Shown piece after piece: positions 62,186 to 63,190 of a DNA stretch of 64,000 nucleotides. The notes beneath the pieces are model-generated. The model saw only the letters and a program-made list of their open reading frames with translations, was not told where the DNA came from and searched no databases. The stretch lies in the NCBI RefSeq assembly GCF_053078305.1, contig NZ_CP166879.1. One strand, given 5' to 3'. The position numbers and the translations under genes are program-made. The number at the start of each line of letters is the position of its first letter. Within the stretch, counting starts at the first letter, position 1.

Positions 62186-62655
62186 TGCAACAGCTGTTGA
62201 AAAGCCGGAATGTACTCTTTATTGCAAACATTTCAGGGATGAAGTGAAGATGAATTGAGACGTAGTATCCACACCAAGCCGGCGTTATCCGGTGAGGCGC
62301 AATGTTGCGGGGGCTTTATCCCTGGTGGCATTGGTTGCTGGAAAGAGAAAACCCCCGCACGTTGAGAGGTAAAACCTGACAACAAAACGGGGGCTAATCT
62401 TGAAACCAGACACTTCAAGAATAGCCGCAAAATGTTGTCATTACAACAAGGCGGCTATATGACGCTCGCGCAGTTTGCCATGACTTTCTGGCACGACCTG
62501 GCGGCACCGATCCTGGCGGGAATTATTACCGCAGCGATTGTCGGCTGGTGGCGTAACCGGAAGTAAGGTGAAAACGGGCGTCAGGCTGCCGTGATGGCAA
62601 TATGCGCCCGAAACCGGCCGCAGGGGTAACAACCTGCGGCCATTTTTGTCTTTAT
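62186..62655. repeat. LDR (long direct repeat) copy 1, type I toxin-antitoxin locus ldr/rdl
   Basis: About 470-bp unit, near-identical to 62715..63190; contains the Ldr ORF and a terminator hairpin. Confidence 0.8.
62459..62566 (+). CDS. ldr: Ldr small toxic peptide (35 aa), copy 1
   Basis: MTLAQFAMTFWHDLAAPILAGIITAAIVGWWRNRK by manual translation; below ORF-track cutoff. Confidence 0.85.
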   Translation: MTLAQFAMTFWHDLAAPILAGIITAAIVGWWRNRK

Positions 62656-62714
62656 CACTTCCACAAGTAAATATTGGCAACCCGAGCTGGAAGCATCATC
62701 CAGAGCACTCATGA

Positions 62715-63190
62715 AACGACTGTTACAGCTGTTGAAAAACCGGAATGCACTCTTCATTGCAAACATTTCAGGGATGAAGTGAAGATGAATTGAGTCGTAG
62801 TTTCCACACCAAGCCGGCGTTATCCGGTGAGGCGCAATGTTGCGGGGGCTTTATCCCTGGTGGCATTGGTTGCTGGAAAGAGAAAACCCCCGCACGTTGA
62901 GAGGTAAAACCTGACAACAGAACGGGGGCTAATCTTGAACCATCAACAATTCAAGAATAGCCGCAAAATGTTGTCATTACAACAAGGCGGCTATATGACG
63001 CTCGCGCAGTTTGCCATGATTTTCTGGCACGACCTGGCAGCACCGATCCTGGCGGGAATTATTACCGCAGCGATTGTCGGCTGGTGGCGTAACCGGAAGT
63101 AAGGCGAAAACGGGCGTCAGGCTGCCGTGATGGCAATATGCGCCCGAAACCGGCCGCAGGGTAACAGCCTGCGGCCTTTTTTGTATCCGG
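62715..63190. repeat. LDR copy 2, type I toxin-antitoxin locus ldr/rdl
   Basis: Second tandem unit, a few substitutions relative to copy 1. Confidence 0.8.
62995..63102 (+). CDS. ldr: Ldr small toxic peptide (35 aa), copy 2
   Basis: MTLAQFAMIFWHDLAAPILAGIITAAIVGWWRNRK (T9I relative to copy 1). Confidence 0.85.
   Translation: MTLAQFAMIFWHDLAAPILAGIITAAIVGWWRNRK

Follow-up and report, generated by a model that had tools for sequence, protein, structure and literature searches.

Two tandem ldr/rdl modules between chaA and kdsA

The DNA analysed here is a stretch of 64,000 nucleotides from contig NZ_CP166879.1 of the RefSeq assembly GCF_053078305.1, hereafter called the window, and the region in question covers positions 62,186 to 63,190. 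We are highly confident that this region, taken as a whole, is best explained as two intact, tandem chromosomal LDR cassettes of E. coli, which are ldr/rdl type I toxin-antitoxin modules with a gene for the Ldr toxin on one strand and a gene for the cis-antisense RNA, Rdl, on the other (Table 1). The features that identify the family at the sequence level are a hydrophobic peptide of 35 amino acids, an Rdl RNA of ~60-67 nt that is complementary to the 5' untranslated region (5' UTR) of ldr, and a tandem unit of about 530 bp at the chaA-kdsA site, all of which the window array has. The locus itself offers nothing new, as it holds members of the Ldr/Rdl family at their canonical position, in a two-unit state that is a common allele. 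It is a textbook chromosomal type I array, which matters little beyond adding one more strain with this allele.

The array is flanked by chaA (60954-62054, plus strand) and kdsA (3' end from 63250, minus strand, cut by the end of the window), both identified through annotated genomes that match positions 61900-63400 in one piece at 99.6-99.9%. A direct-repeat search over 60500-64000 identified one family at 62108-62404 and 62643-62939 with 86% identity, the first ~70 nt of which represent divergent flank, and a second family at 62410-62625 and 62946-63161 with 98% identity. In the two families, the second copy starts 535 and 536 bp after the first, respectively, and there must therefore be one 1-nt indel between the units, near 62405-62409. 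The near-identity of the units starts at ~62178 and ~62713 and stops at the terminators, at ~62649 and ~63186, so that the array consists of one full 535-bp period and a shorter unit of ~475 bp without the inter-unit spacer. The initial annotation had described two near-identical tandem units between chaA and kdsA, which is borne out by an identity of 95.3% (445 of 467 aligned columns, 62186-62650 versus 62721-63186), whereas its unit length of about 500 bp should be replaced by a period of 535/536 bp and a shorter second unit. Tandem Repeats Finder detected no repeats over the window, but its longest period of 500 bp is below the LDR period, which makes it uninformative on the array.

Both open reading frames (ORFs) encode peptides that match the Pfam family PF13940 (Ldr_toxin) over the full length, with 91.6 bits for Ldr-1 and 87.7 bits for Ldr-2 against a cut-off of 27, and the initial annotation had read the 35-residue toxins with Thr or Ile at position 9 correctly. 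Ldr-1 is identical to LdrB of E. coli K-12, while Ldr-2 has the combination Ile9/Gly29, as compared to Ile9/Ser29 in both LdrA and LdrC of K-12, and is a single residue apart from LdrA. In RefSeq, the identical proteins are WP_000170963.1, annotated as ldrB, and WP_000170954.1 (the same as Ldr-2), both listed as Ldr-family toxins, and the only match of the peptides in PDB is 5LBJ, the nuclear magnetic resonance structure of LdrD (E = 1.5e-10). The signature of the Fst/Ldr superfamily is a PxxxG motif in the transmembrane helix and a Trp residue between the helix and the charged C-terminus (PMC7472228), and the translations of both window peptides contain P17-I-L-A-G21 and the basic C-terminus W30-W31-RNRK.

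Ldr is a single-pass inner-membrane peptide, and overproduction of LdrD or LdrA causes a drop in ATP within minutes, condensation of the nucleoid, and growth arrest or death; co-expression of RdlD prevents the toxicity of LdrD by a block of translation, with Rdl overlapping the 5' UTR only (PMC4147584, PMC8309996, PMC12643268). LdrA is described as a membrane pore-forming toxin that is neutralised by YajC (PMC12643268). No direct toxicity test of LdrB was found in the literature examined. By analogy with the K-12 homologs, given that Ldr-1 equals LdrB and that Ldr-2 is so close to the tested LdrA, the window peptides may likewise be toxic and neutralised by Rdl.

Each unit also contains a full-length match to the Rfam model RF01813 (rdlD; gathering score 50). 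The minus strand and the approximate placement of the Rdl genes had been predicted correctly in the initial annotation, with limits near 62340-62410 and 62876-62941 that turned out to be off by 1-6 nt, and its opinion that they could not be delimited from sequence alone is overturned by the Rfam matches, which delimit both. Annotation pipelines name the Ldr coding sequences and usually skip the Rdl genes, which Rfam places exactly. Rdl-1 is identical to K-12 rdlC across its 66 nt, while the 5' tail of Rdl-2 is UUGAUGG, with one extra nucleotide, as compared to GUUCUGG in rdlA. The Rdl-2 transcript may start at G 62947, as suggested by the spacing of its promoter and by homology to rdlA, which has 67 nt. 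In the predicted folds of both RNAs (-26.7 kcal/mol, z = -5.1, for Rdl-1 and -27.3 kcal/mol, z = -4.5, for Rdl-2), a long stem-loop with a U-tail is formed, and ~16 nt at the 5' end remain single-stranded. Full complementarity to Rdl extends over nucleotides -113 to -48 of the ldr 5' UTR, and the targets end upstream of the ldr ATG by 47 nt in one unit and 48 nt in the other, so that they lie outside the ribosome-binding site (RBS) and the start codon.

Many chromosomal hok loci are decaying, non-functional relics, and the same might apply to one or both of the LDR units, although we consider this hardly probable. Decay would be in line with the absence of a known phenotype for chromosomal ldr deletions (PMC7472228) and with the -10 box proposed for unit 2, which deviates more from the consensus than the boxes of unit 1 and of other genera (TAGAAT). 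However, neither ORF is disrupted and both match the family over the full length, the two Rdl RNAs each cover the whole Rfam model, and the terminators and all conserved mRNA helices are intact. Insertion sequences are absent from both window units, in contrast to the two-unit strain NZ_CP098201.1, where IS200C has inserted inside the LDR array in the chaA-kdsA interval.

Table 1. Positions of the features of the LDR array in the window, with proposed and predicted elements marked as such.
Feature	Position	Strand	Description
LDR unit 1	62178-62712	+	Full 535-bp period including the 63-bp inter-unit spacer 62650-62712; from direct repeats and alignment with K-12 units
LDR unit 2	62713-63187	+	~475 bp, ends at the terminator, no spacer before kdsA; from direct repeats and alignment with K-12 units
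Proposed ldr -10 box, unit 1	62263-62268	+	TAGTAT
Proposed ldr -10 box, unit 2	62798-62803	+	TAGTTT
ldr mRNA 1 (predicted)	62275-62648	+	~375 nt, 5' UTR ~185 nt
ldr mRNA 2 (predicted)	62810-63183	+	By homology to unit 1
ldr coding sequence 1	62459-62566	+	35 aa + stop, MTLAQFAMTFWHDLAAPILAGIITAAIVGWWRNRK, Thr9/Gly29; from the ORF list
ldr coding sequence 2	62995-63102	+	35 aa + stop, MTLAQFAMIFWHDLAAPILAGIITAAIVGWWRNRK, Ile9/Gly29; from the ORF list
Intrinsic terminator, ldr mRNA 1	62616-62648	+	9-bp stem with 8 G-C pairs, then T-run (hairpin and T-run match 62616-62641)
Intrinsic terminator, ldr mRNA 2	63152-63183	+	9-bp G+C-rich hairpin, then T-run (match 63152-63176)
Rdl antisense RNA 1	62346-62411	-	66 nt; RF01813 (rdlD), 91.8 bits, model positions 1-66
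Rdl antisense RNA 2	62881-62946	-	RF01813 (rdlD), 83.6 bits, full-length model match
Putative Rdl-1 promoter	62418-62446	-	-10 TATTCT (reverse complement of 62418-62423), 17-nt spacer, -35 TTGTAA (reverse complement of 62441-62446)
Putative Rdl-2 promoter	62954-62982	-	Unit 2 equivalent
mRNA hairpin UCUUGAA/UUCAAGA	62398-62420	+	Arms 62398-62404 and 62414-62420; unit 2 equivalent at ~62933-62956
RBS-adjacent hairpin	62424-62455	+	GCCGC..UGUUGU-CAUU-ACAACA..GCGGC, ends 3 nt before the ATG; unit 2 equivalent at 62960-62991
Predicted 5'-3' closing helix	62296-62301 with 62603-62608	+	GGCGCA with UGCGCC (3' UTR)

Copy number and mosaic structure of the array

The genome of E. coli K-12 MG1655 has ldrA/rdlA, ldrB/rdlB, and ldrC/rdlC annotated in tandem at the same site, in the order ldrC-ldrB-ldrA, and so the three K-12 copies mentioned in the initial annotation are indeed there. 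Kawano et al. reportedly placed LDR-A, LDR-B, and LDR-C of E. coli K-12 between kdsA and chaA in 2002. The window array shares with these units the locus, the orientation relative to chaA and kdsA, and the 535-bp period, but contains two units rather than three, with a chaA-kdsA intergenic region of 1,195 bp as compared to 1,729 bp in MG1655. Over ~473 positions, window unit 1 shows 8 and 5 differences to the K-12 units C and B, respectively. Window unit 2 shows 11 differences to unit A, which is its closest K-12 unit, and 6 differences to the unit in the middle of the array of strain 2013C_3277, which has three. Diagnostic sites reveal that unit 1 is a mosaic that contains the chaA-proximal flank and the Rdl region of unit C and the coding variants of unit B. 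Unequal crossing-over or gene conversion among repeats of ~95% identity would make mosaic units of this kind, and unequal homologous recombination or gene conversion probably shifts the number of units (1, 2, 3, or more) from one strain to another.

We searched 5,426 complete E. coli genomes with a junction query of 72 nt that is specific to the inter-unit spacer (62645-62716). The junction was found at 6,499 places in 4,065 genomes, with a median of 2 and a maximum of 6 per genome. An evenly spaced sample of 60 junction records contained 25 with one junction (two units) and 35 with two (three units). A locus with three units was also confirmed by direct inspection. The totals translate into ~1,640 genomes with two units (~30%), ~2,430 with three (~45%), and ~1,360 without the junction, that is, with one unit (~25%), all of these fractions being estimated from the junction counts and from two samples of 60 records. 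In the other sample, an independent spread of 60 records obtained with the whole locus as the query, there were 17 collinear two-unit records, 14 one-unit records, and 28 with more than two units, and one record matched only at ldrD.

The two-unit state is a common strain polymorphism and represents real copy-number variation. The alternative is that the assembler collapsed a true, K-12-like array of three units into two. Such an error could have generated the chimera-like unit 1, with the 5' half and Rdl of unit C joined to the coding half of unit B, and the window also contains a single tRNA-Tyr gene where its nearest relative has two, placed 119 bp apart. An assembly error was moreover suspected by the authors who put on record NRG857c, a strain with one copy at chaA-kdsA (PMC7232551). 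However, many independent complete genomes, members of the O157:H7 and O55:H7 lineages among them, contain the two-unit haplotype as one collinear piece from chaA to kdsA with 99.6-99.9% identity, exactly one junction is present in ~30% of the complete genomes, and strain D8 has units that are identical to both window units. Single tRNA-Tyr loci are likewise known from finished genomes. Given how widespread the two-unit haplotype is, a collapse is very unlikely, and the copy numbers of one, two, and three point to a real polymorphism where an assembly error had been suspected.

Promoters and terminators

The putative ldr promoter was placed by the conserved TAGnAT motif, where the conservation across genera begins (GTAGnATC), and the 5' ends of the predicted mRNAs were taken from there. 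With this putative 5' end, the whole RNA of unit 1 has a predicted fold of -166.3 kcal/mol (z = -5.87). A stable ldr mRNA with a long 5' UTR and an intrinsic terminator is a further trait of the Ldr/Rdl family. The claim in the initial annotation of a terminator hairpin in each unit is supported by a hairpin followed by a T-run in both cases. The stem of the terminator in ldr mRNA 1 shows covariation across genera, and seven terminator-like sites were seen as compared to 1.8 expected from shuffles.

The putative promoter of Rdl was located by hand from the 5' end defined by Rfam. It agrees with the consensus at 8 of 12 positions, and the -10 box of Rdl-1 ends 6 nt ahead of the Rfam-defined 5' end. 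The -35 box is situated 13 nt upstream of the ldr start codon, and the RBS-adjacent hairpin and the Rdl promoter therefore share DNA.

Comparative structure of the ldr mRNA

Relatives were collected with an exact 21-mer from the conserved ldr 5' UTR, using one genome per species, which resulted in 44 loci. Nearly all were from Escherichia, Salmonella, Citrobacter, Klebsiella, Kluyvera, and Pseudocitrobacter, and the other three were from an Enterobacteriaceae assembly and from records titled Chryseobacterium and Bacillus. The latter two, Chryseobacterium sp. 18061 (L033) and Bacillus sp. EB106-08-02-XG196 (L053, a contig of 503 bp with 0.66x coverage), contain exact matches to the ldr 5' UTR, and L033 is identical in the matched stretch to a Citrobacter contig (L041) from the same study. 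These matches look like assembly contamination rather than a wider host range.

The alignment comprised 47 non-redundant ldr units from six enterobacterial genera, in which the 5' UTR is better conserved than the coding region and behaves like a structured RNA. With a specified structure, 95.5% of the cells were paired, as compared to 34-47% when the partners were slid, and 13 pairs had changed on both sides, although the structure was derived from unit 1 and its edge over the slid controls is thus partly built in. The clearest covariation was observed in the UCUUGAA/UUCAAGA hairpin, where five of the seven pairs have changes on both sides. The loop of this hairpin contains the complement of the 5' end of Rdl and is the likely site of first contact with Rdl. 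The helices of the RBS-adjacent hairpin, which overlaps the proposed Rdl -35 box of the other strand, were paired in 100% and 98.7% of the cells, and the inner pair is formed by C-G in 33 units and by U-A in the other 14. A helix linking the 5' end to the 3' end that would close the ldr mRNA was predicted by RNAalifold from the 47 units and by the single-sequence fold of unit 1, and is plausible.

Arrays of two to three tandem ldr/rdl units with periods of ~465-530 bp were also observed in Klebsiella spallanzanii, K. michiganensis, K. oxytoca, K. aerogenes, Kluyvera sichuanensis, K. cryocrescens, and Escherichia sp. E1V33 (loci L040, L042, L049, L035, L007, L024, and L028). Multiplication is therefore recurrent in the ldr/rdl family and not a peculiarity of E. 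coli.

In a few loci, an ldr-type 5' UTR with an rdlD match above the gathering score (50.5-71 bits) precedes a different hydrophobic ORF of 30 amino acids, such as MTFKEALLLAVVTSVVGPVLVALIRHFFKF and MTLNEALLLAVVTSIVGPIVVALVRHFFKF. These loci are from Kluyvera ascorbata (L030, L031, and L052), a plasmid of Lelliottia sp. (L009, ~519-780), and a metagenome-assembled Enterobacteriaceae genome with two tandem units (L034, ~667-1500). Searches of the ORF against Pfam and NCBIfam gave no matching model, and the Lelliottia record lacks an annotation for it. It may be the result of a toxin swap on an otherwise shared RNA regulatory chassis, or else an Ldr that has diverged very far.

A proposed model for the control of ldr by Rdl

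In each of the two units, the plus strand would give rise to an mRNA of ~375 nt with a 5' UTR of ~185 nt, an ldr ORF of 35 codons, and an intrinsic terminator, while the minus strand would produce an Rdl of 66-67 nt from a promoter that overlaps the translation-initiation region of ldr. In the mechanism that we favor, the full-length mRNA would be held in a poorly translatable form by the RBS-adjacent hairpin and the 5'-3' closing helix, as in the hok mRNA. The single-stranded 5' tail of Rdl would first meet the loop of the hairpin at 62398-62420, whereupon the Rdl-ldr duplex would extend to 66 bp. Once formed, the duplex would presumably keep the mRNA from becoming translatable and serve as a substrate for RNase III, and a conserved, translationally coupled leader ORF (ldrX) would not be required. 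More tentatively, and as a possibility that we would not put above other explanations taken together, we suggest that the ldr mRNAs across the Enterobacteriaceae are pro-mRNAs silenced by fold-back, on which Rdl acts without a mok-like leader ORF through a covarying hairpin with a hypervariable loop, each Rdl perhaps being partly specific for its own unit. The antitoxins of the Sib/Ibs paralogs are partly specific for their own mRNAs, and a partial specificity of each Rdl might likewise follow from the loop and tail being the largest difference between the units (GUCUGGUUUC in unit 1 and UUGAUGGUUC in unit 2). From the overlap of ldrD and rdlD, RNase III-dependent double-stranded RNA of ~21 nt has been captured (PMC7373196).

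Several points weigh against the favored mechanism. An automatic sigma-70 scan with a threshold of 9/12 detected no promoter in 62000-63300, the Rdl promoter having been missed because only 8 of its 12 positions match, and the transcription starts and promoters of both ldr and Rdl in the window were deduced from sequence only. Both arms of the closing helix are invariant in all 47 units, so that covariation neither supports nor refutes it, and since the 5' arm lies within the 21-mer used for the collection, the invariance is forced on that side. The reviews also differ: the mechanism of Rdl was "currently unknown" according to a review from 2021 (PMC8309996), and the leader-ORF model (Gerdes and Wagner, 2007) was described as unproven in one review (PMC4147584), but the coupling to ldrX is presented as a fact in another (PMC8167048).

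If the latter were correct, Rdl would act as Sok does on Hok, by blocking the translation of a leader ORF in the 5' UTR to which the translation of ldr is coupled. We regard this mechanism, which was proposed by Gerdes and Wagner in 2007 and has been repeated in reviews (PMC4147584, PMC8167048), as unlikely. In unit 1, a UUG codon at 62400, which is located in the Rdl target after GGGGG, opens a frame of 20 codons with a UGA that overlaps the ldr AUG as AUGA. Similarly, K-12 ldrD has an in-frame AUG at -90, K-12 ldrA has a GUG frame that ends at the same AUGA, and the Rfam model of the hok/sok region has a weak match on the ldr 5' UTR (30.5 bits, E = 4e-4). However, neither the frame nor the extent is conserved, and owing to the 1-nt indel, this UUG is in frame with ldr in unit 2. 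Chance alone would give an open frame of ~16-20 codons in ~40% of cases, the match to Rfam is far under the gathering score of 59, and the review from 2021 termed the mechanism unknown. We examined every frame in the 47 units and found no conserved leader ORF, since the candidates vary in frame, start, and extent, and the window units even differ from each other. Moreover, no start codon is present in either of the frames that read into or end at the ldr AUG in the K. aerogenes type (three units), one of the two K. oxytoca units, the Pseudocitrobacter unit, and two Kluyvera units among the 47. The alignment thus speaks against conservation of an ldrX ORF and singles out specific RNA helices for testing.

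Comparison with other toxin-antitoxin systems

The experimentally studied LDR-D of K-12 (ldrD-rdlD, between bcsG and yhjV) has the same architecture as the window units, the segment CCGGTGAGGCGCAATGTTGCGGGGGCTTTATCCCTGGTGGCATTGGTTGCTGG of its 5' UTR is identical in the window, and the LdrD peptide is ~57% identical to the window Ldr. It differs in that it is a single copy at another locus with a diverged coding region, and in that the in-frame AUG at -90 is absent from the window units.

The hok/sok system, known from plasmid R1 and chromosomal homologs, resembles ldr/rdl in that a cis-antisense RNA acts on the 5' UTR upstream of the toxin RBS, in the long and highly structured mRNA, and in the sense-antisense duplex, which is a substrate for RNase III (PMC7373196). 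The predicted 5'-3' closing helix of ldr would be comparable to the fold-back inhibition of the hok mRNA. However, the toxin families are unrelated, and a conserved, mok-like overlapping ORF is missing from the 47 ldr units. The matches to RF01794 ("sok", a 157-nt model of the hok/sok region) at 62309-62461 (plus strand, the 30.5-bit match above) and 62844-62997 (plus strand, 27.0 bits, E = 4e-3) are below the threshold and were given no weight in assigning membership; they are suggestive of a distant resemblance in structure or sequence between the ldr and hok leaders.

The Fst/Ldr superfamily, which includes par of pAD1, shares with the window toxins the small single-pass peptide, the PxxxG motif, and the Trp before the basic C-terminus (WWRNRK). 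The Fst systems differ in that they are regulated by convergent RNAs that overlap at their 3' ends, and the NCBIfam Fst model did not match the window Ldr (7.7 bits versus a cut-off of 26).

Other features of the window

The gene order in the window, trp region - tyrT - narGHJI - narK - narXL - chaCBA - kdsA, is collinear with K-12. A Trp operon leader was identified at 12715-12808 (Rfam RF00513, 93.1 bits), and the window therefore spans from the trp region through to kdsA. None of the complete genomes searched was identical to the window, with a best match of 99.7% over 24 kb. A plasmid or mobile origin was rejected: 22 plasmid records matched, all of them non-mobilizable, and several look like mislabelled pieces of chromosomes, being megabase-sized or having chromosomal neighbors such as bcsG, dppF, tsx, and yajD.

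A single tRNA-Tyr gene at 45953-46037 is followed by an RtT RNA at 46084-46215 (Rfam, 130.5 bits). Two tRNA-Tyr genes occupy this place in ETEC6335, the nearest complete relative, and the extra copy accounts for the difference in length of 119 bp between ETEC6335 and the window over 24 kb. Single tRNA-Tyr loci are present in the finished genomes of AS19-RrmA- and GF153, and the tRNA-Tyr locus is a second tandem copy-number polymorphism in the window besides LDR.

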